Assembly (NCBI GenBank): GCA_030616365.1 | Contig: JAUWXM010000001.1 | Location: forward strand, 1-52,362 | Origin: a bacterium | GTDB taxonomy: Bacteria; UBP18; UBA7526 | Direction of reading: 5' to 3' | DNA: 52,362 nt | Part shown: positions 4,766-33,052 of the stretch, piece after piece | Position numbering within the stretch: position 1 is the first letter of the stretch | How the letters are laid out: every line of letters begins with the position of its first letter | The notes under the pieces: model-generated | Told to the model about the DNA's origin: nothing | What the model saw: the letters and a program-made list of their open reading frames with translations, nothing else | The model's database searches: none | Made by a program: the position numbers and the translations under genes

Positions 4766-4777
4766 GGAGTTTTTTTG

Positions 4778-7006: not shown

Positions 7007-7096
7007 GATTTCTCTATTCCAACCATTGCTTAAGCCGCGAATGGCAACCGCCAAGACTCCTGTCCGCCGCACATAGTGTGCTATGGAAGGCGGGCT

Positions 7097-7149: not shown

Positions 7150-7204
7150 ATAGGAGAAACAACGCGAATAAGAATTTGAATAGTCTATTAAAAAGGAAAA
7201 AGAT

Positions 7205-9049: not shown

Positions 9050-9411
9050 AAGGCAGGCGGGCCCCGACGAGCGAGGAGCTGGGAATCGGGGTCTCCGCTT
9101 CGCTCCGAAAAGTGAGCAGGTGGGGAAAGGTATAGAAACTGGTTTAAGGGTATAGAAACTCGTATCGAGACTCATATCAAATAATATAACGCAATATCAA
9201 AAATCAAAATGCAAAAATTAAAATGACAATGCAAAATGTAAAATTTTGAATTTTAATCTGTAATTTTGATATTTAATTCTTAATGTTTGATTTTCTTAAA
9301 CGTTACGAGCATCGACAACGACAAACTTTTATTGACGATAAACGGTAGATTTGCAAAAGTTAAGTAATAATGTAAATTGCTCAATGTTCAATGTAGAGAG
9401 AGGAGTAGATT

Positions 9412-9957: not shown

Positions 9958-10128
9958 TCAAACAGTTAGTTAGCAGTTAGCACGGCAACTCCGTTGCCTA
10001 TAGTTGGTTAGTAAAAGAATAAGAAAAACAAATTTTTCCATTAAAGACCTTCAACTAACAACTAAAGCGAGCGAAGTGAGCGTGCTAACCGACTAACAAA
10101 CTAACTATCTGAGCGGAGCGAGGAAAAA

Positions 10129-11106: not shown

Positions 11107-11131
11107 AATGAATATAAATAAGGAGAAATTA

Positions 11132-12379: not shown

Positions 12380-13587
12380 GAAGAGTAACTATTCTTTTCC
12401 TAATCATTACCTTTACTCTTCTTCTCGCCGTTTCTGCTTTTACCCTGACAAAGGAGGAGCAAGCCTGGAAGGAGGATATCCTCACCCTCCTCTCCCTGGT
12501 GAAAAGGCTTGGGGATTACTCAGAAGCGGTGGAACTCATCGAGGTTGCTCCAGCATTAAAAGGGGACCCGGAGATAAGAAAGGCATTTGTTACCTTTGCT
12601 CCTCCGGGAGCCACCCCTCCTGAATGGGCGAGAGAAGAAAAGGAGGCTCCTCCTGTCAAGATAGAGGTTCCGGAGAAGATTGCAATCGCAGAAGCGGCCC
12701 GTAAAGCTCTGGAAGAGCAACGGGCCAAGCAGAAGGAGAAAGAAAGACGCGAAATGAAGGAAGGGGAAGTAAAAGATTACTACCGGGTGGGGAAGAAATA
12801 TTATTGTGCCGCTGACTATCAAAAAGCAATAGGAGAGTTTGAGAAGGCCTTAAAAATCAATCCCCTTCATAAGAAGGCGAAGAAATATCTCATTAAAAGC
12901 TATTATGAAATGGGTGAAAAATTTTATAGGAATCAGGCCTACCGCCAGGCGAGTATCGAGTTTAAAGAAGTACTGGCTCTGGAGCCAGGACATAAGAAGG
13001 CCAAAGAGTTTTTAAGTAAATGTCAGGCTAAGGTGGGAGTAGAAGTGGTCAAGGAAATTCCTGAAGAGAAAAAAGTCGAGATTGTTAAAGGAGAACCGAA
13101 GATCGAAGCTCCCCGGGAGGCTGAAATAGTAACTGAAGGTCCTCCGGAGAAGATTGTAACCGCAGAAGCGCAAAAGGAAAAAGAAAGACGCGAAAGGGAA
13201 GAAGGAATTGAGGAAGAGTTAGGAATTATACCCACCCCCCTTCCCAAGGGAGCCAAGGTTATCTACTCTACGGATGTGGTGAGCGGGGTGAAGGCTGAGA
13301 TGGTTGGGGGGAAGATGAGGGTGACCATCGCCCTCTCTGGCGAGAGGGAGTATAAGGTATCCGAAAGAACTCGGCCACCGAGCATTGTCATTAATATTCC
13401 CCATACCATAAACGCTATCGCTCCCGAGACCATCCCAATAAATAAAGGATGCCTGAGAATGATTAAGGCCACTCAGCATAGGCATCTTCCTGTTGCTGAG
13501 GCAAGAATAACGGTCATCCTCAATCGTTGGACAGAGTACCGGGTAACCCACAGGAATAATGAGATATACATCGATTTTGAAGAATAG
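12376..13587 (+). CDS. Signal-anchored TPR protein with a C-terminal AMIN domain
   Basis: TPR pairs (YYRVGKKYYCAADYQKAIGEFEKALKINP; AYRQASIEFKEVLALEP). The C-terminal KMRVTIALSGEREYKV...SIVINIPHT...RITVILNRWTEYRV...NEIYIDFE matches the AMIN pattern. ATGA overlap upstream. Confidence 0.65.
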   Translation: MRRVTILFLIITFTLLLAVSAFTLTKEEQAWKEDILTLLSLVKRLGDYSEAVELIEVAPALKGDPEIRKAFVTFAPPGATPPEWAREEKEAPPVKIEVPEKIAIAEAARKALEEQRAKQKEKERREMKEGEVKDYYRVGKKYYCAADYQKAIGEFEKALKINPLHKKAKKYLIKSYYEMGEKFYRNQAYRQASIEFKEVLALEPGHKKAKEFLSKCQAKVGVEVVKEIPEEKKVEIVKGEPKIEAPREAEIVTEGPPEKIVTAEAQKEKERREREEGIEEELGIIPTPLPKGAKVIYSTDVVSGVKAEMVGGKMRVTIALSGEREYKVSERTRPPSIVINIPHTINAIAPETIPINKGCLRMIKATQHRHLPVAEARITVILNRWTEYRVTHRNNEIYIDFEE

Positions 13588-14143
13588 ACTCATACTCATC
13601 TTGAGTATGCTATTGCTGGCCACTTCCCTTTTGGCCCAGGATGAGGATGTTACCATTATTATTGGAGAGAGAAAGGCTCTCCAGGATGAGGGAGAGGAGG
13701 ATTTTCAGCTAATCCTCCAACCGGAAATAAATATTGAGCCGGAAATAAACATCGAGTGGAAAACAAATATCGAATCCCCCCAGTTAGAGATCTCAAAGGA
13801 AATAAATAATCAGAAATTTTTCTTATCTTTATTACAGGATAAGAACCCCTGGAACCGAGCAGAGGCAGCAAAAGCCCTGGGGGAGATAGGCAGCCAGGAG
13901 GCAGTCCCTTTTCTAGGTAAGATTTTGAAGAAGGATAAAAACCACTATGTGCGCTATAGGGTTGCCTGGGCCCTGGGAGAGATTGGAGGCAAGGAATCCC
14001 TCGTTACTTTAAAAAAAGCTCTTAAGAGGGAAAAGGATCGGCAGGTAAAGGAAATGATTGAAAAGGGTATAAAAAAGATAGAATCTGGCCCCTTTATCAG
14101 CCCCGAGGCACACTACCAGAATTTCTTAAGGAGGAAGAGATGA
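13559..14143 (+). CDS. Exported HEAT-repeat protein
   Basis: Signal peptide RLILILSMLLLATSLLAQ. Two PBS-lyase-type HEAT repeats (RAEAAKALGEIGSQEAVPFL; YRVAWALGEIGGKESLVTL). Overlaps both neighbours. Confidence 0.6.
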   Translation: MRYTSILKNRLILILSMLLLATSLLAQDEDVTIIIGERKALQDEGEEDFQLILQPEINIEPEINIEWKTNIESPQLEISKEINNQKFFLSLLQDKNPWNRAEAAKALGEIGSQEAVPFLGKILKKDKNHYVRYRVAWALGEIGGKESLVTLKKALKREKDRQVKEMIEKGIKKIESGPFISPEAHYQNFLRRKR

Positions 14144-16218
14144 GAATACATCTGAGATGGATAATGGGCGGTTTAACGGTCCTTTTAATCCTGGGAATGG
14201 TAGGAGGTATTCTCCTTGCCCAGGAGGAAGAGGCCTATTCACCTGAAGAAGAGGCCGCCTATTCACCAGAGGAGGTCATCCCGGTTGTGGAACCCGTGGT
14301 TCCGGTTCCCGCCAGGCCAACCAATGCTGTTCAGAATATTGAGGTGGTAGATTTACCGGAGAAGGTGAGAATCATCATCCATACCACCCAGCCGGCAGAG
14401 TATATTATCGGTAAGCTCTATAAGCCAAAGATGCTCTATATCGATATCTTAAACTCGGTGAACGACCTCCCCAGAAAAAGGTTCCGGGTGAAGAAGGGAC
14501 CAGTAAAGAGGATAAGATCCAGCCAGTACCATGTCCTTCCCACAGAGATTTCAAGGATTGTGATAGACCTTGATAAGTGGGTGAAGCATGAGGTAGCGAA
14601 AGAAGGGAATAAGTTATACTTAGAGTTCTATAAACCAGAGGTCTTAATGGCCAAGGCCCCACCAGAGGAGAAGGCCCCTCCCGAGGAAGAGAAGGTCCCC
14701 CCTGAAGAAGAGGAGAAGGCTCCCCCTCCTGGGGAAAGGTTAATCAGCCTCTCTTTTACTGATGCTCCTATGTCTGCGGTATTGAACTTCCTGGCCGAGA
14801 TGAGTGGCTACAATATCGTGGCCAGCGCTGAAGTAATTGAGGGAACGGTGACCATAAACCTGAAGGATGTTCCGGTCATGACCGCTCTGGATATCATACT
14901 GAAGACCAAGGATCTGTGGTATACCGAGGAGAAGAATATCATCATGGTTCTGACCATGACCGAGTTCCTGGAGAGCATCAAGGCCAAGGCAGAACTCACC
15001 AAGATCTATCCCCTGCAGCATGCCATTGCTGAGGATTTGGCCCAGACCCTGAACGAGGTCCTGGGAGGAGCGGTGAAAAGGGAAATTTCCCCAAAAATCA
15101 AAACCGTATATGTCGATACCCCTCACGCAATAGAGGCCATGAAGTCGGTTTCCTTCACGGGGAAGACCTTTGTCATTCCGGAGAAAAGGACCAACTCCCT
15201 CATCATCACTACCGATACTCCCTCCAACTTTATCATGCTTGAGATGCTCATTAAGAAACTCGATACCCCCACCCTTCAGGTGCTAATCGAGACCCAGATC
15301 GCAGAAGTGAAATTAACCGACCAGTTTAAATTTGGAATAACCTGGCTCTGGAGGAAGATGGGCATTGAGCCCGCCCTTGATGCCCAAGGCATTATGAGGT
15401 TCGATGACGCCGAAACTATGCTCTCTGAGGTCGAGGGGATGACATTCACGGGAACCAGAAGGATGTATGATCCCGCGACTGGAGAATGGATTAATGTTTA
15501 CTTCGAGGACAAACCCTATCCAATGAAGACAATTAGCCCCCTAACCACGGAGAGCATGGCGGGTTATAATTTTCTCATTCTCAACAGGCACCTGGATGTG
15601 CTACTTCAGCTGACAAGAAGCATCTCAGATCTTGATATTGTCTCCAATCCCAAGATTGTGACCGCCAATCACATCGGAGGTCATATCTTTGTCGGCGAAA
15701 GGATCCCCATTATATACGGTACCGGTAGAGGTCAGTGGACCTGGAAGTGGGAGGAGGTGGGAGTGACCCTCGATGTCACCCCTCACATCAACGACCAGGG
15801 GGAGACCACCCTGGAAACAAGGACCCACGTGAGTGAGCTTGGAGAGTATCGTACTCTTTATGATGTCCCCTCCATCATTACCCGAACGGTGTCTACCAAG
15901 GTAGTGGTGCCCAGTGGCTATACCCTGATCATCGGAGGGATGATGAGGAATAAGGTAACCGTAGGCAGAACCGGGATCCCGGGACTGATGAGAATCCCCC
16001 TCCTTAAGTATCTCTTCAGCAGCAAGACAGAAGATAAGGAAAAGGTGGAGTATATCTTCTTCCTTACCCCGCGGATCATAATGGCGGGAAGGGAGGTAAG
16101 ACCAGAAGATATCCCAGCGATGAGCGAGGCACCTACCCGATTAGAATCCTCTCCTCCCGCCGAGGTGAGGGAGATTAAACCCATTAAGGAGAAAGAGAAA
16201 AGCAAAAAGAGGAAGTAA
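14140..16218 (+). CDS. pilQ: Type IV pilus secretin PilQ with an N-terminal AMIN domain
   Basis: AMIN domain (VQNIEVVDLPEKVRIIIHT...SRIVIDLDKW...KLYLEFY). N0/STN domain (ISLSFTDAPMSAVLNFLAEMSGYNIV). Secretin core (VSNPKIVTANHIGGHIFVG...GVTLDVTPHINDQG...GIPGLMRIPLLKYLF). Confidence 0.9.
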   Translation: MRIHLRWIMGGLTVLLILGMVGGILLAQEEEAYSPEEEAAYSPEEVIPVVEPVVPVPARPTNAVQNIEVVDLPEKVRIIIHTTQPAEYIIGKLYKPKMLYIDILNSVNDLPRKRFRVKKGPVKRIRSSQYHVLPTEISRIVIDLDKWVKHEVAKEGNKLYLEFYKPEVLMAKAPPEEKAPPEEEKVPPEEEEKAPPPGERLISLSFTDAPMSAVLNFLAEMSGYNIVASAEVIEGTVTINLKDVPVMTALDIILKTKDLWYTEEKNIIMVLTMTEFLESIKAKAELTKIYPLQHAIAEDLAQTLNEVLGGAVKREISPKIKTVYVDTPHAIEAMKSVSFTGKTFVIPEKRTNSLIITTDTPSNFIMLEMLIKKLDTPTLQVLIETQIAEVKLTDQFKFGITWLWRKMGIEPALDAQGIMRFDDAETMLSEVEGMTFTGTRRMYDPATGEWINVYFEDKPYPMKTISPLTTESMAGYNFLILNRHLDVLLQLTRSISDLDIVSNPKIVTANHIGGHIFVGERIPIIYGTGRGQWTWKWEEVGVTLDVTPHINDQGETTLETRTHVSELGEYRTLYDVPSIITRTVSTKVVVPSGYTLIIGGMMRNKVTVGRTGIPGLMRIPLLKYLFSSKTEDKEKVEYIFFLTPRIIMAGREVRPEDIPAMSEAPTRLESSPPAEVREIKPIKEKEKSKKRK

Positions 16219-20493: not shown

Positions 20494-20584
20494 AGGAGAA
20501 TAACGCAGAAACGCTGAAGGAGTAGAAGCGCAGAGGCGCCAAAATAAGAAGGGGTTCTGTTTTCTCTGCGTTTTTCAGTTCCAT

Positions 20585-20611
20585 TTTGCGTTTCGGCGGT
20601 TGCAAGGGAGG
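20585..20611 (+). promoter_or_regulatory. Conserved SD-fused box, ttttgcgtttcggcggttgcaagggagg
   Basis: Same box as at 26611-26632, 28953-28983 and 36722-36749, with a degenerate copy at 50077-50095. It ends in the Shine-Dalgarno sequence, 9 nt before ATG 20621. Confidence 0.6.
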
Positions 20612-20620
20612 ATAGAGAAG

Positions 20621-20788
20621 ATGAGAACCATGGAGCGCCGGGATATTCTGCGTCTCTTGCTAGTAACTTTCTTGGTCGGTTTTGTAGTATTAATCGTGGC
20701 CAAATTCAAGAGGGACTTTGCTTACGATATAAAGAGCAACCTGCGCAGCAACCGCAACTACTATCCTGCAGTCCAGGTGGAGAAATAA
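20621..20788 (+). CDS. Small single-TM protein (55 aa), unknown function
   Basis: MRTMERRDILRLLLVTFLVGFVVLIVAKFKRD... follows the conserved box. The ORF-track start at TTG 20600 lies inside the box. Confidence 0.45.
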   Translation: MRTMERRDILRLLLVTFLVGFVVLIVAKFKRDFAYDIKSNLRSNRNYYPAVQVEK

Positions 20789-20882: not shown

Positions 20883-21028
20883 AAGTTCCGATACCTCAAA
20901 ATAGATTTAGAGTAATAGTGATCAGTGATCGGTAATCGGTCAGTTAAAAAAATTAACTATTCAACATTTTAACTCATTAACTTGTTAACTTATCAACTTG
21001 TTAACTATCCGAGCAAAGCGAGGGTGAG

Positions 21029-24000
21029 ATGGTTGAGGCCTATGGAGCAAAGCCAATTGAGGAGAAACCAACTGGTAAGGGGATGGGATTAAAGGAGAAG
21101 AAAATAATCCTCTGCTGCTGGATCTTCATCTTAGGGGTGGCCTTGGCCACGGCCTTCTTCCATGGGGTTAGTTTTCGGGGCCGGGAGATTATTCCTCCCG
21201 AATCCTTCCTCATCCTCCCCCAATATCTCCCCATGGCCTGGGTTGCGGTTGTTCTTCTGGCGGCTCTGACCGCCTTTTTCTTTTATAGGAAGATGAGATG
21301 GGCCACTCATTCCTTACTCATCTTAGCCCTCCTCTTGAGTATCGCTTGCTATACCAATAAGGTAGATACCTCCCCTCCCAATCATCTAGTCCGTTTCCTG
21401 AGCAAGGATTTTGGGGAGAAGAGGGTGGTCATAGGAAAGATCTGGAAAGAGCCCGAGGTAAGGTATCATACCGATCCGGAAACAGGGAAGATGGAGCAGA
21501 AAGATACCCGAATCCTCATACGACCCACTAAGATTCAACTCGAACCCCCGGATGGCCCTTTCTATAAAGTCAAGAGAGGAGATATCTTAGTAAAGATCGT
21601 TCCCATGATTGGATGGGAAATCTATAACAGGCTATCCTCATCCGAGGCCCTGGGCTATACCGTCAAGTTACACGCTCCGCTACTTGAACCGCAACCCGCT
21701 ACCAATCCGGGAACCTTTGACTATAAAAAATACCTGACCAATAGCGGGGTCTATGCCACTTCCCCGCTCACCTATCCCAGTAGATGGGCCCCTCCCATTG
21801 AGATTCTGAAGGAGACCAGGGGAAGACTCTGGGTAGAGACCGCCCTGTTTATCAAGAAGAGGATGCTTACGCTCATTAAGAAGAGCATGCCCTATCCAGA
21901 GAGTGCCTTCCTGGGTGGGGTTACTCTGGGTCTGCGCCATGGACTGATGAAGCTCCATTATCAAGGTCATCCCTTAAGTGTGGAGAATGCCTTCAAGTGG
22001 TCAGGGACCTTCCATGTCTTGGCGGTCTCTGGCCTTCACGTAACGGTAATCGCTGGCCTCCTCTTCGGCCTCTCCCTTCTTCTGATCAAGTCAAGAGAGA
22101 AAGCGGCGGCCCTCACCCTCTTCTTCATGATCTTTTTCGCCCTGATGATATTCACCGCCCTTACCGGGGCCCGTCCCTCCACCATGCGCGCCTTCATCAT
22201 GGTCTCCATCGCCCTCCTTCTCTGGGCAATGGGTATTGGTCTGCGCTACTCCATCCTTCTATCCATCCCCATTGCGGGCACCGCCATCCTTCTCCTCAAC
22301 CCCCTGGTCCTGACCGAGGCCAGTTTCACCCTCTCCTTCGGTGCTGTTTTATCCTTAGGGCTGATTACCGGCCCCACTATGAAGTATTTAAGGCGGAAGG
22401 ACCTGAAGGGTCTACCTTCCGTAGCTCTTTTAGCTCTTGCCCTTATCTTTCCCATTATCTCCTATTTCCATAAAGAGGCCTTCAAAGAACTCTACACTAC
22501 CGGACAGTTCATCATCCTCGCTTTCCTACTTCTGGTACTCTCCTACGTCATTCAGAGACGCTATCGCTTTGGAAGGTTCCGGAGGGTAGAGAATATTATT
22601 ACCTATCGTGAGAAGCAGGGGGGCTTTAAGAGCATAGAGGAACTTGCTCAGGTTCCGGGCATAGATAGAGGAACTTCCTTAAGACTCAAGAAAAAGATGG
22701 AGAAGCCGGGGAAAGATATTAATACCATCTCTCCCTACGCCTTAGAGAATTTAATGCCGGGAGGACCCCTCTTCAGGTTTGGCCTGGGCAGTGGGAACCC
22801 CTTCTTTCTTGCCCGGTGGTTCTTTGCTTTCCTCTGTGCCCAGGTAGCCATTAACTTAGGGATGATGCTCCCCCTCTCCCTCTACTACTTCAAGCACATT
22901 CCCTATGCCGGTCCCTATGCCAACTTCATGGCTATTCCTCTGATTACCACTATCATCCCTTTAGGGATAATGGCGGGCATCCTGGGGATGATTATCCCTG
23001 GCTTGGGTCAGTACTTAGCCTTACTCATCAATGCGGGCAACTGGCTTCTGGTTAGATTCTTCCTCTGGCTTTCCTATACCGCCACCAATATCTTCCGCTA
23101 TCCTTTTGAGAAAACCCCTACGGTCTATCAGTTAGCTGGCTATTTCTCCCTCCTTCTGGTCTATGTTTATTTCGATGACCTGCATGGTCGTCTGGTCCGT
23201 GGGAGATTTAAGGAGAAGATGCGTGCCGGGATAATCATGGGCCTCGTTGCCCTCCTCTTCTTCATCGGTTCTCTATCCGCCCAGAGAAAGCCTCTTCTGA
23301 AGGTCCTCTATCTCTCCGTGGGATATGGGGACTCCATCTTAATCCAGACCCCCCAGGGAAAGAATATCCTCATTGATGGGGGATACCCCAGCCCCGACTG
23401 GGAGACCATCGCCCCGGTCTTAGTGAAGGAGGGGATTAAGAGATTGGATACCGTATTACTCACCAATCCCAGCCTGGAACATATGGGAGGATTGATCTCC
23501 GTCATTAAGAACTTTGAGGTCAACCAATTCATCGATAGCCTGGGTCCTGACCGGGTGAGCCCAGATATCTCCTATGATGAATTCCTCACCCTCTTAAATG
23601 AGAAGTATTTTTTGGAGAATAGAGATAAAGAATATGTCCGAGAGACCTATGAGACCTATCTAAAACTCTTAAGAGTCCTGAAGGAGAGGATGGTCATCCA
23701 TAAGAAGGGGAGCTATGGGACAATCATCGCTAAAGAGAGATTCCGGGGTAAGGATTTAGAGTTCTATATCCTGAACCCCATGGAACCTAAGATCGATTAT
23801 GCCTACTCCAACCTCTCGGCCAATTCCATAGTGACCAGGCTCATCTATGGTAATAACACCTTTTTATTTACCTCCAACCTTGGCCCAGAAGGAGAAGCGA
23901 GATTAGTGGCTTCCGGGAATGTCTTAAGAGGCGCCATTTTACAGATTCCCGCTCATGGGAACATCCATTCCAGCACCTCTGGTTTCTTAAGGGCGGTCAA

Positions 24001-24259
24001 TCCCCGGGTAGCCGTCCTCTGCTATGGAAGTGCCAAGTATTCTGGCCGGGATAAGAGAGAGGCCACACGACTCAAGAAGGAGATGCAACAGACCTTAGCC
24101 AAGTATCGAGGAGAGGTGGAGAGGTGCTACACTACAGACCGCTACTCTGAGAGTGCGGATATGGCGGTCATTATCACCTCCAATGGGAGAGAATATAGTA
24201 TAGAGACTATGCGTGGTCGCTCAAGGCATGAGAGACCATTAGTTATGAGGGCGCGCTAA
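21029..24259 (+). CDS. comEC: ComEC/Rec2 paralogue 1 (1076 aa): DUF4131-like OB region, competence membrane domain with an inserted ComEA-like HhH module, and an MBL domain with a degenerate metal motif
   Basis: FHVLAVSGLHVTVIAGLLFG competence motif. Insert IITYREKQGGFKSIEELAQVPGIDRGTSLRLKKKM (about 22586-22700). MBL region VGYGDS...LLTNPSLEHMGG...IPAHGNIHSS. Confidence 0.85.
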   Translation: MVEAYGAKPIEEKPTGKGMGLKEKKIILCCWIFILGVALATAFFHGVSFRGREIIPPESFLILPQYLPMAWVAVVLLAALTAFFFYRKMRWATHSLLILALLLSIACYTNKVDTSPPNHLVRFLSKDFGEKRVVIGKIWKEPEVRYHTDPETGKMEQKDTRILIRPTKIQLEPPDGPFYKVKRGDILVKIVPMIGWEIYNRLSSSEALGYTVKLHAPLLEPQPATNPGTFDYKKYLTNSGVYATSPLTYPSRWAPPIEILKETRGRLWVETALFIKKRMLTLIKKSMPYPESAFLGGVTLGLRHGLMKLHYQGHPLSVENAFKWSGTFHVLAVSGLHVTVIAGLLFGLSLLLIKSREKAAALTLFFMIFFALMIFTALTGARPSTMRAFIMVSIALLLWAMGIGLRYSILLSIPIAGTAILLLNPLVLTEASFTLSFGAVLSLGLITGPTMKYLRRKDLKGLPSVALLALALIFPIISYFHKEAFKELYTTGQFIILAFLLLVLSYVIQRRYRFGRFRRVENIITYREKQGGFKSIEELAQVPGIDRGTSLRLKKKMEKPGKDINTISPYALENLMPGGPLFRFGLGSGNPFFLARWFFAFLCAQVAINLGMMLPLSLYYFKHIPYAGPYANFMAIPLITTIIPLGIMAGILGMIIPGLGQYLALLINAGNWLLVRFFLWLSYTATNIFRYPFEKTPTVYQLAGYFSLLLVYVYFDDLHGRLVRGRFKEKMRAGIIMGLVALLFFIGSLSAQRKPLLKVLYLSVGYGDSILIQTPQGKNILIDGGYPSPDWETIAPVLVKEGIKRLDTVLLTNPSLEHMGGLISVIKNFEVNQFIDSLGPDRVSPDISYDEFLTLLNEKYFLENRDKEYVRETYETYLKLLRVLKERMVIHKKGSYGTIIAKERFRGKDLEFYILNPMEPKIDYAYSNLSANSIVTRLIYGNNTFLFTSNLGPEGEARLVASGNVLRGAILQIPAHGNIHSSTSGFLRAVNPRVAVLCYGSAKYSGRDKREATRLKKEMQQTLAKYRGEVERCYTTDRYSESADMAVIITSNGREYSIETMRGRSRHERPLVMRAR

Positions 24260-24345: not shown

Positions 24346-24765
24346 ATGAATTTTATCACCCTTATGAGTTTTGGCATGGTGCTGGTCATCCTCTTCTTAT
24401 TCCTTGAGAAGAGGTTATGGGAAAAGGAGCTGGAGCAGAAAAAGATTCTCTCCACCAAAAAAGGGGAGAAGGTCCAGTCCTCTGGTGAGGTGAGGATTGC
24501 TGACTGGCTCTTCGAGCATAATATTGAGTATGAATATGATCAGGAAAAAGAAATTGCTTCTGAGTTCATCCGTCCCGACTTCTATCTTCCCAGAGAGAAT
24601 GTGGTCATCGAATACTGGGGAATCATGACCGACCCCAGTTATCGACGACAGAGGGAAAGGAAAGAAAACCTATATCGCATGGAAGGAATGACTCTCATCT
24701 CCATCGAGAATATAGGGAGTATTGACAGTATCCTTTCTTCCAACCTTGAAAAAGAAGGAGTGTAA
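24346..24765 (+). CDS. Membrane-anchored small protein with a PD-(D/E)XK-like (restriction-endonuclease-fold) domain
   Basis: N-terminal TM FITLMSFGMVLVILFLFL. SSGEVRIADWL...YEYDQ...IRPDFYLPRENVVIEYWG...LYRMEGMTLISIE resembles the E...PDF...hhE.xG pattern of Vsr/DUF559/helicase-IV-N-type nucleases. Assignment is from motif memory only. Confidence 0.4.
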   Translation: MNFITLMSFGMVLVILFLFLEKRLWEKELEQKKILSTKKGEKVQSSGEVRIADWLFEHNIEYEYDQEKEIASEFIRPDFYLPRENVVIEYWGIMTDPSYRRQRERKENLYRMEGMTLISIENIGSIDSILSSNLEKEGV

Positions 24766-25319: not shown

Positions 25320-25435
25320 GAAGTAACAAGTTAACAAGGATACAAGTTAACAAGTTCCAAGTCGTCCCAAAACTTATTGACTTATTAACTAATCAACTTG
25401 TTAACGTATTAACTCGCGACCGAAGGGAGCGTGGG

Positions 25436-26491
25436 ATGGTTGAGGCCTATCAAGTAGAGAAAGAGCCAGAGAAACCAAAGGAAGTAAACCCCGCCCCTAT
25501 GAGGGGCGGGGTAAAGAGGTCGAATAAGGGTTTCTTCTCTTCAGTCATTATTCTACTTTTGCTTGCTTCCTCTGCCTGGGGATTGGCATTAAATGCCAAT
25601 TGGCGCCAAGCGCTCTATGCCTCCTTTAAGGAGGCCTCTCTTCCCACTCCCGTAGAGACCAAAGAAGCATATCGACCGCCTAAAGAATTGACTATTACCT
25701 ACTTCGACGTTGGCCAGGGATTGGGCCATCTCATTCAGATTCCTTCAGGAAAGGTGATTATGTATGATGCGGGAGAGGGAGCGGACCCGGACAATAAGTA
25801 TAGCAAGTATCGGGGTGCGGGGGGAAAGGCTGTTCTCCCGGTCTTAAGAGGAGAGCATATTAAAAAGATTGATGTTATCGTTAGTTCCCATCCCCATAGC
25901 GATCACCAGGGAGGATTCCTTTCCATATTGAGTAGCGATGAGTTTGAGATAGGGGAAGTATTAGACCCGGGTATGGTCCATCCCACCCCCACCTATAACG
26001 CCTTTCTGGAACTGATAGAGGCAAAAGGGATACCCTATCGCATTGTGAGGGATGGGGAGATACTGGACTGGGGCCCGGAGGTCTTTGTCCAGGTCCTCTC
26101 TCCTCCTAAAGGCCAGTTATGGACTCATGCCAATGATAACTCAGTGACTATAAAGTTAATCTATGGCAAGACCAGTTTCCTTTTCACGGGAGATATTGAG
26201 AAGTTAGCCATCAATAGACTCATCAATGAGTATGGCCCGAGAATAAAGGCAGACGTGGTTCAGGTTCCCCATCATGGCTCCAATACCTCAAACGATAGGA
26301 ACTTCCTTAGATTAGTAGGGGCCTCCCATGCCGTGACCAGTGGTACTGGAGGACCACCATTTGGTCATCCCACCCCAGAGACCGTGAAGAGGTGGAGAGA
26401 GATCGGGGCCCAGGTGCATCAGACCCATCTGGATGGAGATATTACCATCATCAGTGATGGAAAGAATATAAGAGTAAAGACCTTGAGGTAA
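25436..26491 (+). CDS. Free-standing membrane-anchored/exported metallo-beta-lactamase, ComEC C-terminal-domain type, metal motif intact
   Basis: TM FFSSVIILLLLASSAWGLAL. ITYFDVGQG...VSSHPHSDHQGG...FTGDIE...VPHHGSNTSN...FGHP. An alternative ATG exists at 25499. Confidence 0.8.
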   Translation: MVEAYQVEKEPEKPKEVNPAPMRGGVKRSNKGFFSSVIILLLLASSAWGLALNANWRQALYASFKEASLPTPVETKEAYRPPKELTITYFDVGQGLGHLIQIPSGKVIMYDAGEGADPDNKYSKYRGAGGKAVLPVLRGEHIKKIDVIVSSHPHSDHQGGFLSILSSDEFEIGEVLDPGMVHPTPTYNAFLELIEAKGIPYRIVRDGEILDWGPEVFVQVLSPPKGQLWTHANDNSVTIKLIYGKTSFLFTGDIEKLAINRLINEYGPRIKADVVQVPHHGSNTSNDRNFLRLVGASHAVTSGTGGPPFGHPTPETVKRWREIGAQVHQTHLDGDITIISDGKNIRVKTLR

Positions 26492-26526
26492 GTTAGGAAA
26501 AGAATTTAATTTTGCGCCTTTGCGTT
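26484..26526 (+). repeat. 43-nt repeat spanning the last 2 codons, the stop and the downstream spacer (copy 1)
   Basis: tgaggtaaGttaggaaaagaatttaattttgcgcctttgcgtt equals 28910-28952 except for one base. Confidence 0.9.
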
Positions 26527-26610
26527 TAAGCGCCAAGTCGCTAAAGTTTAAAACAAAAACGCCAAATTATTTTGGCGCTTTTGCGAACTTTTAGCGCTTT
26601 AGCGTTTAGC

Positions 26611-26632
26611 GCTTTGGCGGTTGCAAAGGAGG
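26611..26632 (+). promoter_or_regulatory. Conserved SD-fused box gctttggcggttgcaaaggagg
   Basis: Identical to 28962-28983. Followed in both loci by tgaagaga. Confidence 0.6.
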
Positions 26633-28917
26633 TGAAGAGAACGAGAAAAATATTTTTGGTATTATTCATTTTATTCATTAGTGCTTTATTTCTATTGCCA
26701 GAAGCCCAGGCAAAAGAGGAGTTTGTTAAGGCTTTAGTATTGAGCGCCCGGAATGAGAAGGGTCCCATCGAAAGGAACCTCTTTTACTATCCCGCCCAGA
26801 CCCAACACCTTTCCCTTAAGGTTCTGGGGGGCGTTCATAAGGGAAAGATAATCGATCTTGAGAATCACCTCGTTGGTCAGCGGGGATACGATACTCTCTT
26901 AGAAACTAAAGAAAAGGCCCTCATCCAGATTGCCACTACTCCTCAGGGGAAGATTTCTCATATTACCCTGGTTAGTTATCTCAGGGATAAGTTCATCTAT
27001 CTTCTTTTAGCGGTCTTTCTATTTTTTCTTATCCTGATCGGGGGATTGAGGAAGGGATTACGAACGGTAACCGCTCTCATGATTACCGTGGGCTTAATCT
27101 TCTTCGTTATGTTCCCCCTCTTTAAGATAGGTTCTCCTCCTTTATTGACCGGTATTATCATCTCTCTTCTGGTTAGTATCATTGTTCTCTATTTAGTGGG
27201 GGGTGGCGGGGTGAAGAGCCTCTCCGCCATCTTAAGCACCATCATCGGCGTAGCCATTGTTGCTGGGATAGCCTTATTGGGCGCTCACTTCATGCGCCTT
27301 AACGGTTATCATATGGAGGAGTCGAAGACCCTGGTCTTTTTACTCCGTCATACCCCTCACTGCGCTCTGAGCGACTTACGAGGGTTACTCTTAGTGGGGA
27401 TCATCATCGGCGGCTTGGGGGTGATGATGGATGTGGCCATCTCTGTCGCTTCCGCAGTCTATGAGATAAGGGATGCCCATCCCGGAATTGACCAGAAGGA
27501 ACTAATGGGAAGGGGAATGAATGTGGGCAAAGATATCATGGCCACCATGGCCAATAGCCTCATCTTAGCCTATCTTGGCCTCACCCTCCCTCTCATCTTA
27601 GCCTTCCGGGTCCTGCATACCCCGTTCTCGCGCATCTCTAACTGGGCCTTCTTAGATATTGAGGTCCTGGCCGCTTTGGCAGGAAGTATTGGCTTTGTCT
27701 TAGTAATCCCTTTAACTGTAGTAATAACTACCAGCCTCTTATTTAAGAGAATCCCTTTCCCCAAGACTAAAGTAGCCGGGGTCATTCTTTTACTATTTCT
27801 ATCTTTAGGAGTGGGTTTTAGCGGTGCCCAGGCTTCTCATCAGGAGGAACTCCTGCCCGACTCCGATCTGCGCAGTCATCCCCTGGTCTTCGTTTATGAG
27901 AGAGGGGACGAGTTCGCTAAGGGAAGGGTCCTGGAGATAGAGAAAAGGGGAGAGGACCAGGAGCTTATTACCTTTAAGGTCTTAGAAGGAAGGCATAGAG
28001 ATAAGATAGTAACCATACCAAATTATCTATCTGGAAAACCACAGTATGACTTTATCTTTCAAAAGAATGACTCTGCCCTTCTCCAGGTATCCCAGGGGGA
28101 GTTCTATATCGCAGACTATGTCCGGGATAGGTTCTTGATTATTCTATCAGGTATATTTCTCGTTCTCCTCATCCTGGTGGGAAGATTGAAGGGTCTGCGT
28201 ACCGCCTTAGCCTTAGGACTAACTTTGGCTCTGATTCTTTTTCTTTTCCTGCCTCTTATCGAGGCCGGTCATTCTCCAATATTAATAAGTATCCTGGTCT
28301 CTATCTTAGCCACTTTCATTACCCTTTATCTGGTAGCCGGTTTTGGGATTAAGGCCACCAGTGCCATTCTGGGCACCTCGCTTAGCATCTTCATGGTGGC
28401 CGGACTATCGCTACTGGCCGGGCATCTCCTGAGAATCACGGGCTTTAGTTCTTCCGGCATCCGGATGCTCAACTACTTCTCCCGCCATTATGGAAAGGGT
28501 CTGATCAACGATATGCCCGGGATTGTTACCTCAGTAATTATCATCGGTGCCTTGGGGGTAGTTATGGATGTGGCCATTAGTGTCTCCTCCAGCATTCAGG
28601 AGATAAAGGGGGCCTCTCCCCGGATTAGTCAGGGGGAACTGATTAGAAGGGGATTCAATGTGGGAAGGGACATCATGGCTACTATGGCCAATAGCCTCAT
28701 CTTAGCCTATATCGGAGGAAGCCTATTATTAGTAATGGTCTACCTAGTAGGAGAGTTCCCTTTCCTTCAAATAATCAATACCGAGTTCATTGCCTTAGAA
28801 ATAACCCGCGGCCTGATAGGGAGTCTGGGCTTTGTCTCTGTTATCCCGGCTACCGCTATTATCAGCGGTATGTGGCTATCAAGGTCCGCGGGATATAAAA
28901 CAAAGACCGTGAGGTAA
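26632..28917 (+). CDS. Duplicated (tandem-fused) YibE/F-family membrane protein
   Basis: Two halves, each with a soluble N-domain then a polytopic YibE/F core (GVMMDVAISVASAVYEI...GKDIMATMANSLILAYLG and GVVMDVAISVSSSIQEI...GRDIMATMANSLILAYIG). Start uncertain (GTG 26632, TTG 26614 or TTG 26572). Confidence 0.8.
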   Translation: MKRTRKIFLVLFILFISALFLLPEAQAKEEFVKALVLSARNEKGPIERNLFYYPAQTQHLSLKVLGGVHKGKIIDLENHLVGQRGYDTLLETKEKALIQIATTPQGKISHITLVSYLRDKFIYLLLAVFLFFLILIGGLRKGLRTVTALMITVGLIFFVMFPLFKIGSPPLLTGIIISLLVSIIVLYLVGGGGVKSLSAILSTIIGVAIVAGIALLGAHFMRLNGYHMEESKTLVFLLRHTPHCALSDLRGLLLVGIIIGGLGVMMDVAISVASAVYEIRDAHPGIDQKELMGRGMNVGKDIMATMANSLILAYLGLTLPLILAFRVLHTPFSRISNWAFLDIEVLAALAGSIGFVLVIPLTVVITTSLLFKRIPFPKTKVAGVILLLFLSLGVGFSGAQASHQEELLPDSDLRSHPLVFVYERGDEFAKGRVLEIEKRGEDQELITFKVLEGRHRDKIVTIPNYLSGKPQYDFIFQKNDSALLQVSQGEFYIADYVRDRFLIILSGIFLVLLILVGRLKGLRTALALGLTLALILFLFLPLIEAGHSPILISILVSILATFITLYLVAGFGIKATSAILGTSLSIFMVAGLSLLAGHLLRITGFSSSGIRMLNYFSRHYGKGLINDMPGIVTSVIIIGALGVVMDVAISVSSSIQEIKGASPRISQGELIRRGFNVGRDIMATMANSLILAYIGGSLLLVMVYLVGEFPFLQIINTEFIALEITRGLIGSLGFVSVIPATAIISGMWLSRSAGYKTKTVR

Positions 28918-28952
28918 ATTAGGAAAAGAATTTAATTTTGCGCCTTTGCGTT
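28910..28952 (+). repeat. 43-nt repeat spanning the last 2 codons, the stop and the downstream spacer (copy 2)
   Basis: See 26484-26526. Confidence 0.9.
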
Positions 28953-28983
28953 AAATTTTGCGCTTTGGCGGTTGCAAAGGAGG
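28953..28983 (+). promoter_or_regulatory. Conserved SD-fused box aaattttgcgctttggcggttgcaaaggagg
   Basis: Same box as 36722-36749 and 26611-26632. ATG 28992 follows 8 nt later. Confidence 0.6.
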
Positions 28984-28991
28984 TGAAGAGA

Positions 28992-29657
28992 ATGAGAAAG
29001 AGCATTGTTTTGATGGGAATTTTGGCTCTGGGTCTCATCCTCTTGGCAGGATGTCGCCAGAGACCGCAGGAAGTGGAACTGGAGAAGAAGGAATTGGTCC
29101 CTCTTGAGGAGATGGTTCCTTTGGAACCTATGGCAGAAAAGGCCCCTATGGTTGCTGAGGCACCTCCTGCTGTAGCACCAACCCCAGTCGCACCAGCTGC
29201 TGTGACCGGAAAGATAAACATCAACACCGCCACTTCCTCTCAATTAGAGAGCTTGCCCGGTATCGGACCAGTCAAGGCTCAGGGCATCATCGCTGGCCGT
29301 CCTTACTCAAGCATCGAAGACCTGGATAAAGTTCCCAGAATCGGACCCAAGACCATAGAGAATCTGAGGCCCTACATTACTGTTGGAGAAGCTGCTGCCC
29401 CGGCAGCGGCACCAACCATTGCTCCGGCTGTTATTCCAACCGTTGCTCCTGCTGTGGCACCAGCTGTTGTGGCCGGAAAGATAAACATCAATACCGCCAC
29501 TCAGGCCCAGCTGGAGAGTCTTCCCGGTATCGGACCAGTCAAGGCCCAGGGCATCATCGCTAATCGACCTTACTCAAGCATCGAAGACCTGGATGAAGTT
29601 CCCAGAATCGGACCCAAGACCATAGAGAATCTGAGGCCCTACATCACTGTCGAGTAA
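28992..29657 (+). CDS. Lipoprotein with two tandem ComEA-type HhH modules
   Basis: Lipobox MRKSIVLMGILALGLILLAG|C. KININTAT..QLESLPGIGPVKAQGIIA.RPYSSIEDLD.VPRIGPKTIENLRPYITV occurs twice. The ORF-track start 28938 lies in the repeat box. Confidence 0.85.
   Translation: MRKSIVLMGILALGLILLAGCRQRPQEVELEKKELVPLEEMVPLEPMAEKAPMVAEAPPAVAPTPVAPAAVTGKININTATSSQLESLPGIGPVKAQGIIAGRPYSSIEDLDKVPRIGPKTIENLRPYITVGEAAAPAAAPTIAPAVIPTVAPAVAPAVVAGKININTATQAQLESLPGIGPVKAQGIIANRPYSSIEDLDEVPRIGPKTIENLRPYITVE
29208..29651 (+). repeat. Intragenic duplication: 177-nt HhH-coding unit at 29208-29384 and 29475-29651 (period 267 nt)
   Basis: Long identical runs, for example gttcccagaatcggacccaagaccatagagaatctgaggccctacat in both copies. 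Confidence 0.9.
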
Positions 29658-30615: not shown

Positions 30616-30670
30616 AGAGACGCGCCCGCCTGCCGGCGAGGCAGGAATCAACGCGAATAAGGAGACACGA

Positions 30671-33052
30671 ATCAACGCGAATCTAAAACAGGAATATTCG
30701 CGAATAAGATACCCGCTTGTCGCTATTATCCTCGTCTATATCTCAGGAATCATCCTGGGGCATCTATTAGACATCTCCCTCCCTTCTCTACTCTCCATTC
30801 TCGCTCTCCTTTTAATCCTTTTCTTCCTTGCTTTCTGGAGGAAGAAACCTACCATCTCCACTCTTCTCTTGGGTATTCTGCTTCTTCTCGCCAGCCTCCT
30901 CTACCATGACATTACTCTCGAGCGTATCACCAGAGGAGAGATAACCCCCTTTCTCAATAAAGGCTGGGTTGAGATTTTAGGTACTATCGATCGTCTGCCC
31001 GAGATTAAAAAAGATAGAATCCATTTAATCGTTAAGACAGAGAAGATATCGTTCAAGAAGAAAGAATTCTCAGTCAGAAGCAGAATCCGGGTATCTCTCC
31101 CGAAAGGTAAGACCTCCCTTAATTATGGAGACAGGCTCAGGATCAGGGGAGAATTAATCTCTCCTCCTGGAGCCAGGAATCCCGGAGGCTTCAGTTACCG
31201 GAATTACTTAGCAACCCAGAAGATATCTGCTTTAGTAAATCTGGTCGTTGATGAGCAGATAGAAAATATTGGAAAAGCAAGGGTCAATCCCTTCTTCAGG
31301 ATTGCTTTCTATCTCCGGAAGCGCTTGGTTGAGACCATTGACCATACCCTCCCTTCCCGCGAAGGCTCGGTATTAAAGGGTATCCTTTTAGGAGAAAGAG
31401 GAGAGCTCCCTTCCACCCTTCGCCAGGCATTCATTGCTACTGGAGTGGCTCATGTCTTAGCAGTCTCTGGCCTCCACGTTGGCCTCATCGTGATCTTCTT
31501 CCATTATGGTCTCTTTCGTCTGTTTCGTCTACCCAACAAGGGAAGTGCTCTCCTTACCCTCTTCATCATTATTCTCTACTGCTTTATGACCGGTTGTCGG
31601 CCCCCTGTGGTGCGCGCCACGATTATGTTCGGTCTTTTTCTGCTTGCCTCTTGCCTGGGACGAAAAAGAGAGGTCTATACTACCTTAGCCCTGGCTGGTC
31701 TGGTCATCCTCTTAATCAATCCCCTTACCCTGTTCGACCTTAGATTCCAGCTCTCTTTTGCTGCCGTGCTTTCCATTCTATATCTCTATCCCAGGATCTG
31801 GTCCAGACTAAAGTTCCTCTCCTCCTATCCCGCAGGTTTGATAAGTGTCTCCCTTGCTGCCTGGGTAGGGGTAGTCCCCTTAGTTGCCTATCACTTCAAC
31901 TATTTTACTCCGGTAACCATCTTAGCCAATCTCTTTGTCATTCCTTTAGTTACCATTGTCGCCGCCTTAGGCTTTCTAGCCACCATCTGCTCCTTCTTTC
32001 TTCCCTTGGCCCAGCTCTTCTCTTCCTCTAACTGGCTCTTTCTCACTATCCTAATAAAGGTCATCCATCTCTTCAGCCACTTTCCCGGAGCCGGGATAAG
32101 AGTTGTTACCCCTTCTCTTTCTTTCATTAGTATCTATTACTTAGGCATTGTCGGGCTAATAAATTTTAAACGTTCCCTTTTAATAAGAAAAGCAATCTCT
32201 ACGGGAGCCCTGTGCCTGATAGCCATCTTCGTCTGGGGAAATATCTTTGCCTCTCAAGATAAGTTACTGAAGGTTACTTTCTTAGATGTTGGTCAGGGGG
32301 ATTCAGCCTTCATCCAGTTCCCTGATAGAAAGAGTATGCTCATTGACGGAGGAGATGGTAGGCTTGATATTCTACCTTCTTATCTCTGGGATGAGAGAAT
32401 AAGGAGAATCGATTACTTAGTATTAACCCATCCCCATGCCGATCATGTGACCGGACTCATCAACGTTCTCTCCTATTTCAAGGTAGGCGAGGTCTGGGAC
32501 AGTGGTCAGGAATTTACTTCACCAGAATATGAGAAATTTTTGAGGATTATTGACGACAAAAAAATTGCCTACAAAATAGTCCGGGCGGGTCAGAGGCTAT
32601 CCATAATGCCTGGGGTGGGGATGGATATCCTCCATCCTCAAGAAAGATTCCTGAAGGGTGGCGGTTCAGAACCAAATAATAACTCCATAATAATAAGACT
32701 CCTCTATAAAAAGGTAAGCCTTCTCTTTACCGCTGATATTGAGAAAGAAGCAGAGGATCTTTTAGAGAGAAAATATGGTACTCAACTACATAGCACTATC
32801 CTTAAGGTTCCCCATCAAGGATCTAAGACCTCAAGCACTTTAAAATTTTTAGAGAAAGTTTCCCCAGAATGTGCTATAATCAGCGTTGGTGCCCGGAATC
32901 CCTTCGGTCATCCCAATCCCGCAGTCCTCAAGAGATACCAGAAGATGAAGATTAAGACATATCGAACGGATGAGCGTGGGGCAATAATCATAACCACAGA
33001 CGGGGAGAAATACTGGGTGAGGACCATCTCCCAGACCTGGAGGAATAGATGA
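30671..33052 (+). CDS. comEC: ComEC/Rec2 paralogue 2 (OB region + competence domain + intact MBL domain); start codon unresolved
   Basis: GVAHVLAVSGLHVG. LKVTFLDVGQGDS...LVLTHPHADHVTG...VPHQGSKTSS...FGHP. The ORF track starts at TTG 30869, but the frame is open from 30593. Positions 30710-30868 encode two further hydrophobic helices. ATC 30671 lies 6 nt after AAGGAG. Confidence 0.85.
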   Translation: MNANLKQEYSRIRYPLVAIILVYISGIILGHLLDISLPSLLSILALLLILFFLAFWRKKPTISTLLLGILLLLASLLYHDITLERITRGEITPFLNKGWVEILGTIDRLPEIKKDRIHLIVKTEKISFKKKEFSVRSRIRVSLPKGKTSLNYGDRLRIRGELISPPGARNPGGFSYRNYLATQKISALVNLVVDEQIENIGKARVNPFFRIAFYLRKRLVETIDHTLPSREGSVLKGILLGERGELPSTLRQAFIATGVAHVLAVSGLHVGLIVIFFHYGLFRLFRLPNKGSALLTLFIIILYCFMTGCRPPVVRATIMFGLFLLASCLGRKREVYTTLALAGLVILLINPLTLFDLRFQLSFAAVLSILYLYPRIWSRLKFLSSYPAGLISVSLAAWVGVVPLVAYHFNYFTPVTILANLFVIPLVTIVAALGFLATICSFFLPLAQLFSSSNWLFLTILIKVIHLFSHFPGAGIRVVTPSLSFISIYYLGIVGLINFKRSLLIRKAISTGALCLIAIFVWGNIFASQDKLLKVTFLDVGQGDSAFIQFPDRKSMLIDGGDGRLDILPSYLWDERIRRIDYLVLTHPHADHVTGLINVLSYFKVGEVWDSGQEFTSPEYEKFLRIIDDKKIAYKIVRAGQRLSIMPGVGMDILHPQERFLKGGGSEPNNNSIIIRLLYKKVSLLFTADIEKEAEDLLERKYGTQLHSTILKVPHQGSKTSSTLKFLEKVSPECAIISVGARNPFGHPNPAVLKRYQKMKIKTYRTDERGAIIITTDGEKYWVRTISQTWRNR

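Follow-up and report, generated by a model that had tools for sequence, protein, structure and literature searches.

How does a bacterium use a DNA-import channel whose own nuclease domain lacks its metal ligands and whose membrane domain carries a module of DNA-binding type? The question is posed by ComEC-1, a long ComEC/Rec2-family protein of 1,076 amino acids (aa) encoded in a 52,362-nucleotide (nt) stretch of DNA, the window analysed here (contig JAUWXM010000001.1, assembly GCA_030616365.1; GTDB lineage UBP18, UBA7526), which also encodes a canonical paralogue, ComEC-2. In ComEC-1, a 63-aa helix-hairpin-helix (HhH) unit of the ComEA-type HHH_3 family stands between transmembrane (TM) helices TM8 and TM9, and the C-terminal metallo-beta-lactamase (MBL) domain retains its fold with a degenerate active site. 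We favor, with a probability of roughly 0.55, a reading in which ComEC-1 is a channel with a dead MBL domain, the non-transported strand is cut in trans, and the lineage-specific HhH unit would hold or hand off the incoming strand at the cytoplasmic exit.

A ComEA-type module within a ComEC channel protein

ComEC-1 is a member of the ComEC/Rec2 family by domain content, channel motifs and fold. Pfam profiles locate DUF4131/OB at aa 68–244 (58.5 bits), Competence (PF03772) in two separate stretches (122 bits), HHH_3 (PF12836) at aa 521–555 and, weakly, Lactamase_B at aa 764–999 (31 bits). The cryo-electron microscopy (cryo-EM) entry of N. carbonis ComEC, 30bt, aligns with the full ComEC-1 sequence (phmmer, E 9e-40). 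An AlphaFold2 (AF2) model built from a 121-sequence family alignment, with a mean predicted local distance difference test score (pLDDT) of 87 and a predicted TM-score of 0.87, comprises three N-terminal TM helices (21–44, 64–85, 90–112), a beta-rich OB domain, a helical channel domain and an alpha/beta C-terminal domain. Because the channel motifs, SGLHV (334–338) and T379/G380/P383/R387/A388, are invariant in all 121 sequences, the ComEC-1 channel is probably functional.

The HHH_3 match scores 29.2 bits (E 1e-6; gathering cut-off 27 bits) over profile positions 28–62 of 65, and the isolated insert reaches 37.3 bits (E 3e-9). An earlier note on this DNA had seen a ComEA-like HhH module in the membrane domain, and these scores bear it out: the stretch IITYREKQGG...KKKM (aa 523–557, nt 22595–22699) lies between hydrophobic AF2 helices at 462–480 and 488–512 before it and 593–621 after it. 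A phmmer search with a 65-aa insert segment against 1.84 billion representative proteins gave 812 matches at E<=1e-3; the nine large and three small ones inspected are all HHH_3/ComEA-type proteins, and we read the HHH_3 match as beyond chance. On inspection, the nine largest matches outside the orthologues proved to be arrays of tandem HHH_3 modules, some free-standing and others joined to GmrSD_C, secretin, SLBB or MBL domains; a Competence domain is absent from all nine. Among the best 150 of the 812 matches, the whole insert is matched as a single stretch by the ComEC-1 orthologue cluster only.

An alignment of the nine closest homologues bounds the insert as a clean 63-aa insertion at aa 513–575 (RFGRFRRVEN...PYALENL). 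It had been taken for the second half of a module; it corresponds instead to a full 63-aa period in a shifted register. P0123, a tandem-HHH_3 protein, has a repeat period of 63 aa, equal to the insert length, and insert residues 9–66 run colinearly across its module junction (58 residues, 36% identity, E 3e-9), with ENIITYREKQGGFKSIEELAQVPGIDRGTSLRLKKKMEKPGKDINTISPYALENLMPG aligned over QSIIQYREANGPFQSVDELTQVQGIDDQKLQSMQDFVTAEKINLNTASAEELQ-IVPG. Because this colinearity involves no internal rearrangement, we read the insert as one full period of a tandem ComEA-type HHH_3 array in shifted register. Its order would be HhH-1 helix B, a complete HhH-2, a linker, the 'INT' motif, and helix A with the hairpin start of the next HhH-1. 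A complete two-HhH unit in normal linear order was not found in the insert, where the match is confined to about profile positions 27–62; re-permuting it in silico widens the match to positions 3–64.

The core of the insert, YREKQGGFKSIEELAQVPGI, is typical of ComEA, and GGFxxIEELAQxPG is invariant in all seven insert-bearing orthologues. The net charge is +6. In the AF2 model, helices span 516–530, 536–540, 547–557 and 569–575 (pLDDT 65–82), so that aa 536–557 form a helix, a loop of 5–6 residues and a second helix. The insert shares sequence family and core with ComEA (PF12836), including the tandem-HHH_3 proteins; it differs as a single, circularly permuted period inside a polytopic membrane protein, predicted to be cytoplasmic, with PGID as its hairpin. 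In architecture, register and predicted location, we do not regard it as a ComEA.

ComEA-type modules do occur nearby, as the earlier note had said in counting three; the three ComEA-like genes contain four HHH_3 modules in all. The four form a nucleotide repeat family (D1) to which the insert does not belong, and they are four residues shorter relative to the profile, a gap that the insert lacks. We therefore reject a recent copying of the insert from the neighboring ComEA genes. Canonical ComEA genes in metagenomes are up to ~53–54% identical to the insert over aa 11–50. The GC content of the insert (0.45, flanks 0.50–0.53) is uninformative.

Within the 121-sequence alignment, the insert is carried by P0001–P0007 (70–100% identity to ComEC-1) and is absent from P0008, P0009 (46% identity) and every more distant family member. 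A pattern scan of 241 million metagenome records yielded two further contigs with the insert and its flanks; all other matches were ordinary ComEA genes (aa 11–50, 45–54% identity). Across this survey of ComEC proteins for HhH insertions, which the earlier note had proposed, the insert was found only in orthologues of at least 70% identity and in those two contigs. It appears to have been gained, directly after the second of two extra helices (TMa and TMb), in the narrow lineage of the window, whose relatives include metagenome-assembled genomes labelled UBP18_UBA7526, HyVt-354 and KR13. Insert identity across the seven proteins is 63–84%, near the values for the OB domain and the extra TM segment.

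P0008 is a special case. It groups with the insert-bearing P0006 in 172 of 200 neighbor-joining bootstraps, and its gene (contig L112, 270–3159) is frameshifted between the OB domain and the channel parts. At the site of the insert its protein reads QKRYR/RGGPLFRF, and the DNA junction, CGC CGG GGA GGA CCC, fuses two imperfect 10-nt direct repeats, CCTGGGAAGA and CCGGGGAGGA, which in P0006 stand on either side of the insert. The PLFRFGLG motif of the linker that follows the insert in ComEC-1 is present in P0008 too. We reject P0008 as an ancestral insert-less state, given its nesting with P0006, the repeat-flanked deletion and the frameshifted gene; its lack of the insert looks like a secondary deletion. 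As a copy that may be decaying or poorly assembled, P0008 therefore says little on whether the insert is dispensable.

The nuclease domain and the wider ComEC branch

The C-terminal domain of ComEC-1 retains the MBL fold, matching the nuclease domain of M. glycerini ComEC (9ic4) with a Foldseek E of 2e-15 and a target-normalised TM-score of 0.83. Foldseek with the full model recovered this domain alone, the full-length ComEC entries being newer than the Foldseek library. The degenerate motifs reported earlier, VGYGDS (aa 764–769, nt 23318–23335), NPSLEH and IPAHGN, are real and were misplaced by only a few bases. Of the comparison motif VPHHGS, one part stood: it exists in the stand-alone MBL protein encoded downstream (hereafter the free MBL), and ComEC-2 has VPHQGS.

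Alignment with the characterised domains of 30bt and 9ic4, which shares the residue numbering of the published M. glycerini work, confirms that catalytic-site ligands are substituted. From Moorella to ComEC-1, H598 becomes N813, D600 S815, D602 E817, H667 N916, D700 N950, H725 A975 and S728 N978; H603 and H726 correspond to H818 and H976. Neither HxHxDH or HxDxDH, nor the motif-3 His, the motif-4 Asp or HHGS, is found in ComEC-1, where NPSLEH, N916, N950 and AHGN take their places. In the M. glycerini nuclease, H598A, D602A, H603A and D700A are virtually inactive in vitro and D600A is ~5-fold lower, H725 and S728 are putative DNA contacts, and the mutations that lowered in vitro activity all abolished transformation, S728A excepted (PMC12455585).

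The same positions vary among close orthologues of ComEC-1. At 70–90% identity, the H598 equivalent is N, T or I, that of D600 is S, R or N, that of D700 is N, S or D, and that of H726 is H or R (R in P0002); E817, H818 and mostly H976 are kept within the close subclade. The whole MBL domain nonetheless holds 70–91% identity. Because ligand positions drift in a domain conserved to this degree, selection appears to act on the MBL fold and not on the metal site. We infer, with good support from the ligand substitutions and their drift, that the nuclease activity of ComEC-1 has been lost, as the earlier note had thought probable. An additional helical insertion lies within the domain at aa ~849–886.

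The degenerate site extends far beyond the lineage of the window. The HxHxDH histidines are absent from all 110 more distant relatives, which come from several phyla. In the 111 more distant rows of the alignment (these 110 and ComEC-2), the H598 column is S in 97, its sole H belonging to ComEC-2; the D602 column is E in 92 and the H603 column R in 75. Motif 1 in these rows is VGYGS, not VGQGD, and motif 2 of the wider clade is S-P-x-P-E-R. Source labels of the relatives are Elusimicrobia, Kiritimatiellia, Hydrogenedentota, Dependentiae, Lindowbacteria and others, and a 37%-identical relative occurs in Ca. Euphemobacter frigidus, phylum Auribacterota.

Nearly all family members also carry, at the TM8–TM9 loop, a stretch of ~85 aa with two hydrophobic helices, a region of only 20–27 aa in the shortest rows of the alignment, ComEC-2 included. 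In ComEC-1 these helices are TMa and TMb, with mean Kyte-Doolittle hydropathies of 2.19 and 1.18. TMa (GLPSVALLALALIFPIISY, 22412–22468) matches TM9 of ComEC-2 (GLISVSLAAWVGVVPLVAY) in a secondary BLAST segment, ComEC-1's own TM9 being at 22805–22891. The clade-specific helix pair may derive from an internal duplication of the TM9 region.

ComEC-1 scores 272–418 bits against its long relatives and 140 + 121 bits against ComEC-2 (28–31% identity). Because it scores far higher against proteins of other phyla than against its neighbor, we regard ComEC-1 and ComEC-2 as old, separate lineages of the family and not as products of a recent function-splitting duplication. The proposal of a local sub-functionalisation between the two channels does not hold up, since the degenerate site is common to all 110 distant relatives and ComEC-1 is nearer to those than to ComEC-2. 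ComEC-1 would thus belong to an old, multi-phylum ComEC/Rec2 branch with members of ~930–1300 aa, whose traits appear to be a ligand-less MBL fold, two extra TM8–TM9 helices, and an adjoining PD-(D/E)XK-type gene with a small TM open reading frame (ORF). Compared with canonical ComEC/Rec2 (30bt, 9ic4; PMC13539106, PMC12455585), ComEC-1 shares the OB domain, the SGLHV and TGxxPSxxRA channel, the MBL fold and the TM order; it differs in lacking the metal ligands, in the two extra TM helices and the 63-aa HhH insert of the TM8–TM9 loop, in the helical insertion of the MBL domain, and in length (1076 aa vs ~800 aa).

The free MBL is a likely candidate for a nuclease acting in trans. All five motifs are intact, including VGQG, HPHSDH (nt 25889–25906), TGD and VPHHGS, and we read its N-terminal hydrophobic segment as a TM anchor. 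It is 37.5% identical to the MBL domain of ComEC-2 and 24% to that of ComEC-1. The gene has the same position in L001, L006 and L008. Anchored free MBL genes with intact motifs also follow the ComEC-like gene after ComEA-like genes in Ca. Euphemobacter (L009) and lie three genes downstream of it in L030.

Placement of the insert and alternative readings

N. carbonis ComEC has 11 TM helices, TM10 and TM11 being separated by a short cytoplasmic helix; its OB and MBL domains are periplasmic, TM4–9 surround the channel, and D369 is among the channel-exit residues (PMC13539106, from which the TM and NS6/NS7 names are taken). In the phmmer alignment, ComEC-1 residue 441 corresponds to 30bt chain residue 359 and residue 605 to chain residue 385. 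Because these positions bracket it, the cytoplasmic TM8–TM9 loop with D369 is what the added ComEC-1 material would replace. The order is TM8 (431–458), KYLRRKDLKG, TMa, a short loop, TMb, RRYRFGRFRR, the insert, a 17-residue linker and TM9 (593–621), with six K/R residues directly after TMb. The TM8–TM9 loop is cytoplasmic, the two added helices keep parity, and the basic residues on either side agree with the positive-inside rule; the prediction is therefore a cytoplasmic insert beside the DNA-channel exit, ~17 residues before the channel-lining TM9. The likeness to ComEA had suggested a periplasmic receptor; cryo-EM homology and the basic flanks gave no periplasmic or extracellular location for the insert.

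A sequence of steps would follow from this arrangement. DNA would be delivered through the products of the neighboring type IV pilus and ComEA genes, and one strand would be cut by the membrane-anchored free MBL, encoded two genes downstream, or by ComEC-2. Single-stranded DNA (ssDNA) would pass through the ComEC-1 channel, with its conserved motifs intact, and the basic HhH module would hold the emerging strand at the exit, for retention or for hand-off toward cytoplasmic partners. Engagement of ssDNA by an HHH_3 unit is plausible because attaching a ComEA HhH domain to the nuclease domain makes it more active on an ssDNA substrate of 50 nt. A division of labor of this kind resembles S. pneumoniae, where the ComEC MBL domain is thought inactive, its predicted metal ligands missing, and the separate membrane nuclease EndA degrades the strand (PMC12455585). 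ComEC-1 likewise has a separate candidate nuclease; here it would be a TM-anchored, ComEC-type MBL and not an EndA-type enzyme, and a complete ComEC-2 is also kept.

Several results weigh against this reading. The predicted sidedness depends on homology and helix counting. The nested relative P0008 lacks the insert, which may therefore be dispensable, though that copy is also frameshifted. The C-terminal third of the insert, taken alone from five orthologues, gave no Pfam match to HHH_3, and re-permutation gains only 2–3 bits from the putative first half, which is thus backed by colinearity and not by independent significance. The HhH-2 hairpin is PGID in most orthologues, the canonical GIG occurring in one. 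For the isolated insert, AF2 gave a mediocre model (pLDDT 69) that had no significant match in Foldseek (best E 2.2); some of the weak matches are HhH proteins. Finally, a free MBL is absent near the ComEC-like gene at four loci of three other clade lineages (L002/L031, L004, L029); trans-complementation is therefore not a general property of the clade.

Some of these points would also suit an insert that is a tolerated passenger, a tandem-HhH fragment in a permissive loop with no DNA role or one that serves only as spacer or gate. We consider this unlikely but a serious alternative. Its limitation to a few closely related sequences, the clean removal between the imperfect repeats in P0008, the PGID hairpin in place of GIG, the match to about half of the Pfam profile in linear order and the lack of a significant structural match all fit such an origin. 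What speaks for a function is that the insert stays in frame in seven proteins down to 70% identity at 63–84% identity of its own, with an invariant HhH-2 hydrophobic core and hairpin and a net charge of +6, and that the sole insert-less copy within the clade is a frameshifted gene.

HhH domains also mediate protein contacts in other systems, and the module could be a docking site for a cytoplasmic partner such as the adjacent PD-(D/E)XK nuclease or a helicase/translocase. A PD-(D/E)XK or NERD gene is indeed a conserved upstream neighbor of the ComEC clade; that linkage is found across the clade in loci that lack the insert and so does not depend on it, and we give this possibility little credence.

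We hold very unlikely a strengthened version of the earlier note's model, in which a periplasmic, ComEA-like receptor for double-stranded DNA arose after a local ComEC duplication and the paralogues split binding and cutting. The HHH_3 match is real, the MBL ligands are gone in ComEC-1 and retained in ComEC-2, and periplasmic HHH_3 fusions with MBL or secretin exist elsewhere (P0256, P0154, P0170), all as that model would have it. It founders on the position of the insert in the cytoplasmic TM8–TM9 loop, after an even number of helices and RRYRFGRFRR; on a degenerate site older than the lineage and common to several phyla; on ComEC-2 being a far more distant relative of ComEC-1 than are the long ComEC-like proteins from other phyla; and on an insert that did not come from the neighboring ComEA genes. 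That the ComEC-1 MBL domain is still a hydrolase with a remodelled site (N813, E817, H818, H976) is extremely improbable. In its favor, the close subclade retains E817, H818 and, for the most part, H976, and the domain is well conserved overall (70–91%). Against it, the equivalents of H598 and D700 (Ala mutants of which are inactive) differ from one close orthologue to another (N/T/I and N/S/D), P0002 has R in place of H976, and the wider clade has S-P-x-P-E-R at motif 2.

A DNA-binding-type module at the exit of a natural ComEC, as the favored reading has it, would offer a testable handle on exit-side DNA handling. How the cytoplasmic side of ComEC receives ssDNA is poorly understood, and a 2026 cryo-EM paper describes the channel exit as wide, with no obvious occluding or handling element. 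In the literature searched we found no description of an HhH insertion in ComEC or of the long dead-MBL branch. A further parallel is given by HHH_3 fusions to MBL, secretin and GmrSD_C (P0256, P0154, P0170, P0128), since ComEA-type modules are often joined to uptake or nuclease modules; in those fusions the modules form tandem arrays at a terminus, and the proteins are soluble or belong to the outer membrane. P0256, P0154 and P0170 comprise stand-alone MBL proteins with three C-terminal HHH_3 modules and a secretin with three HHH_3 modules.

Only a small uncultured lineage has the insert, and the wider result may be the weightier one: a large, cross-phylum ComEC-like branch in which the nuclease domain looks dead, additional helices stand on the exit side and a nuclease gene is a conserved neighbor. 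When complete genomes were surveyed, every strain but one had just one ComEC-type protein (PMC6299819). The window shows that the dead-MBL branch can coexist with canonical ComEC in one genome.

Gene neighborhood and minor observations

The window is a type IV pilus and competence cluster (Table 1). Pilins and minor pilins, PilM-PilN, PilO, the secretin, tetratricopeptide-repeat proteins and a sensor come first; the PD-(D/E)XK nuclease, a 55-aa TM ORF, ComEC-1, a 139-aa ORF, a ComEA-like gene and the free MBL form the middle; and a YibE/F gene, tandem ComEA, SLBB-ComEA, ComEC-2 and dCTP deaminase follow. The order from PD-(D/E)XK to ComEC-2 is kept in L001 and L006, and in L008 up to the contig end, with no YibE/F gene there.

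Table 1. Features of ComEC-1 and of the genes around it, in window positions
Feature	Position (nt)	Strand	Basis
PD-(D/E)XK nuclease (PDDEXK_1/Cas4-like), two domains, no N-terminal hydrophobic segment	18868..20493	+	Pfam 211 bits
Small 55-aa TM ORF between PD-(D/E)XK gene and ComEC-1	20621..20788	+	sequence
Upstream element: 8-nt-period TTAACT-type repeats and ATG-containing leader	20939..21052	+	repeat families D2, D9
ComEC-1, long ComEC/Rec2-family protein, 1076 aa	21029..24259	+	ORF, Pfam, PDB match, AF2
OB-fold/DUF4131 domain, ~aa 113–262, periplasmic by homology	21365..21814	+	Pfam 58.5 bits; AF2 beta-strands 132–261
Extra TM helices TMa (aa 462–480) and TMb (aa 488–512), TM8–TM9 loop, clade-specific	22412..22564	+	AF2 helices
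HHH_3-type insert, 63 aa, aa 513–575	22565..22753	+	Pfam; tandem-array alignment; AF2
Linker aa 576–592 (GGPLFRFGLG...), insert to TM9, low confidence	22754..22804	+	pLDDT 55–60
TM9, NS6/NS7, TM10, cytoplasmic helix, TM11, aa 593–750	22805..23278	+	matched to 30bt chain 385–619; AF2
C-terminal MBL-fold domain, degenerate active site, aa 757–1066	23297..24226	+	Foldseek 9ic4; Pfam Lactamase_B 31 bits
Motif 2 NPSLEH (HxHxDH; HPDADH in Moorella), aa 813–818	23465..23482	+	motif position, 30bt/9ic4 alignment
N916, equivalent of motif-3 His H667	23774..23776	+	30bt/9ic4 alignment
N950, equivalent of bridging Asp D700	23876..23878	+	30bt/9ic4 alignment
Motif 5 IPAHGN, aa 973–978; A975 = H725, H976 = H726, N978 = S728	23945..23962	+	alignment
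Stand-alone ComEC-type MBL, N-terminal hydrophobic segment	25436..26491	+	30bt/9ic4 match E 3.6e-39, 138 bits
ComEC-2, canonical three-domain ComEC	30869..33052	+	Pfam Competence 217 bits, Lactamase_B 57 bits; HPHADH

A PDDEXK_1 or NERD gene adjoins or lies near the ComEC-like gene in L001, L002, L004, L029, L030, L031 and L113 (NERD in Kiritimatiellia). It immediately precedes the ComEC-like gene in the UBP18-like, Kiritimatiellia and Lindowbacteria loci; in L004 and L030 the two genes are neighbors or close to each other. Together with a small ORF, a PD-(D/E)XK-family gene stands beside long ComEC in every sampled lineage but Ca. Euphemobacter (L009). The 55-aa TM ORF is 62–93% identical in L001 and L006–L008 (tblastn), and ORFs of 52–88 aa occupy the matching place in other clade loci. 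We found no description of this conserved PD-(D/E)XK and small-ORF neighborhood of long ComEC.

The long branch, its exit helices, the PD-(D/E)XK or NERD protein and the small TM protein might together be a distinct DNA-import machine parallel to canonical ComEC, a proposal we regard as doubtful. One possibility would be a role in DNA breakdown and nucleotide salvage, in which imported ssDNA would be caught at the cytoplasmic exit, here by the HhH insert, and passed to a cytoplasmic nuclease. Such a role is hinted at by the nucleoside-metabolism genes that flank the L009 set and that follow in the window, where dCTP deaminase, AllFGH and nucleoside phosphorylase genes lie downstream. In L009 of Ca. 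Euphemobacter frigidus (4431–14233), a 1299-aa ComEC-like gene with a degenerate MBL site, no HhH insert and large insertions in the OB and MBL domains is followed by ComEA-like genes and a free MBL. Pyrimidine-nucleoside phosphorylase, DHH phosphoesterase and phosphopentomutase genes flank the set, which hints that DNA is taken up there to salvage nucleotides.

An element of ~90 nt stands before both ComEC-1 and the free MBL gene, the copy at the latter lying at 25371–25459. It consists of five to seven TTAACT-type repeats with an 8-nt period and, after them, a conserved leader that includes ATGGTTGAGGCCTAT; the two proteins therefore have common MVEAY N-termini. The arrangement suggests common regulation of the two genes, with the repeats as a putative regulator-binding array.

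The 139-aa ORF after ComEC-1 (24346–24765) has an N-terminal TM helix, a PD-(D/E)XK-like motif (RPDFYL...VVIEYWG) and no Pfam match, and is 61–86% identical in L001 and L006–L008. An intergenic element of 100–170 nt occurs on both sides of the YibE/F gene (26572..28917), at 26476–26648 and 28902–28999, with a partial copy at 20584–20627. The YibE/F gene, missing from L001, L006 and L008, has the look of an insertion with a duplicated stretch of intergenic DNA at either end. Because the element carries a ribosome-binding site and start, the listed N-termini 'ALAVAKEVKR..' are probably not translated. Farther upstream, two pilin-like genes (2492–3448 and 5507–7006) have HHH_3/T2SSK-like modules (39 and 25 bits), bringing the locus to at least 7 HhH-type modules.

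ComEC-2 has its HPHADH motif at nt 32429–32446. Its motif 5, VPHQGS (32807–32824), has Gln at the H726 equivalent, a deviation in the 'canonical' paralogue. Ahead of the listed TTG start its reading frame stays open (30617–30868) and codes for two more TM helices, YPLVAIILVYISGIILGHLL and LPSLLSILALLLILFFLAFW; the open stretch holds no ATG, GTG or TTG, and the orthologue in L001 is annotated with 790 aa. Also upstream of the listed start, at 30638–30682, is a 21-nt direct repeat.

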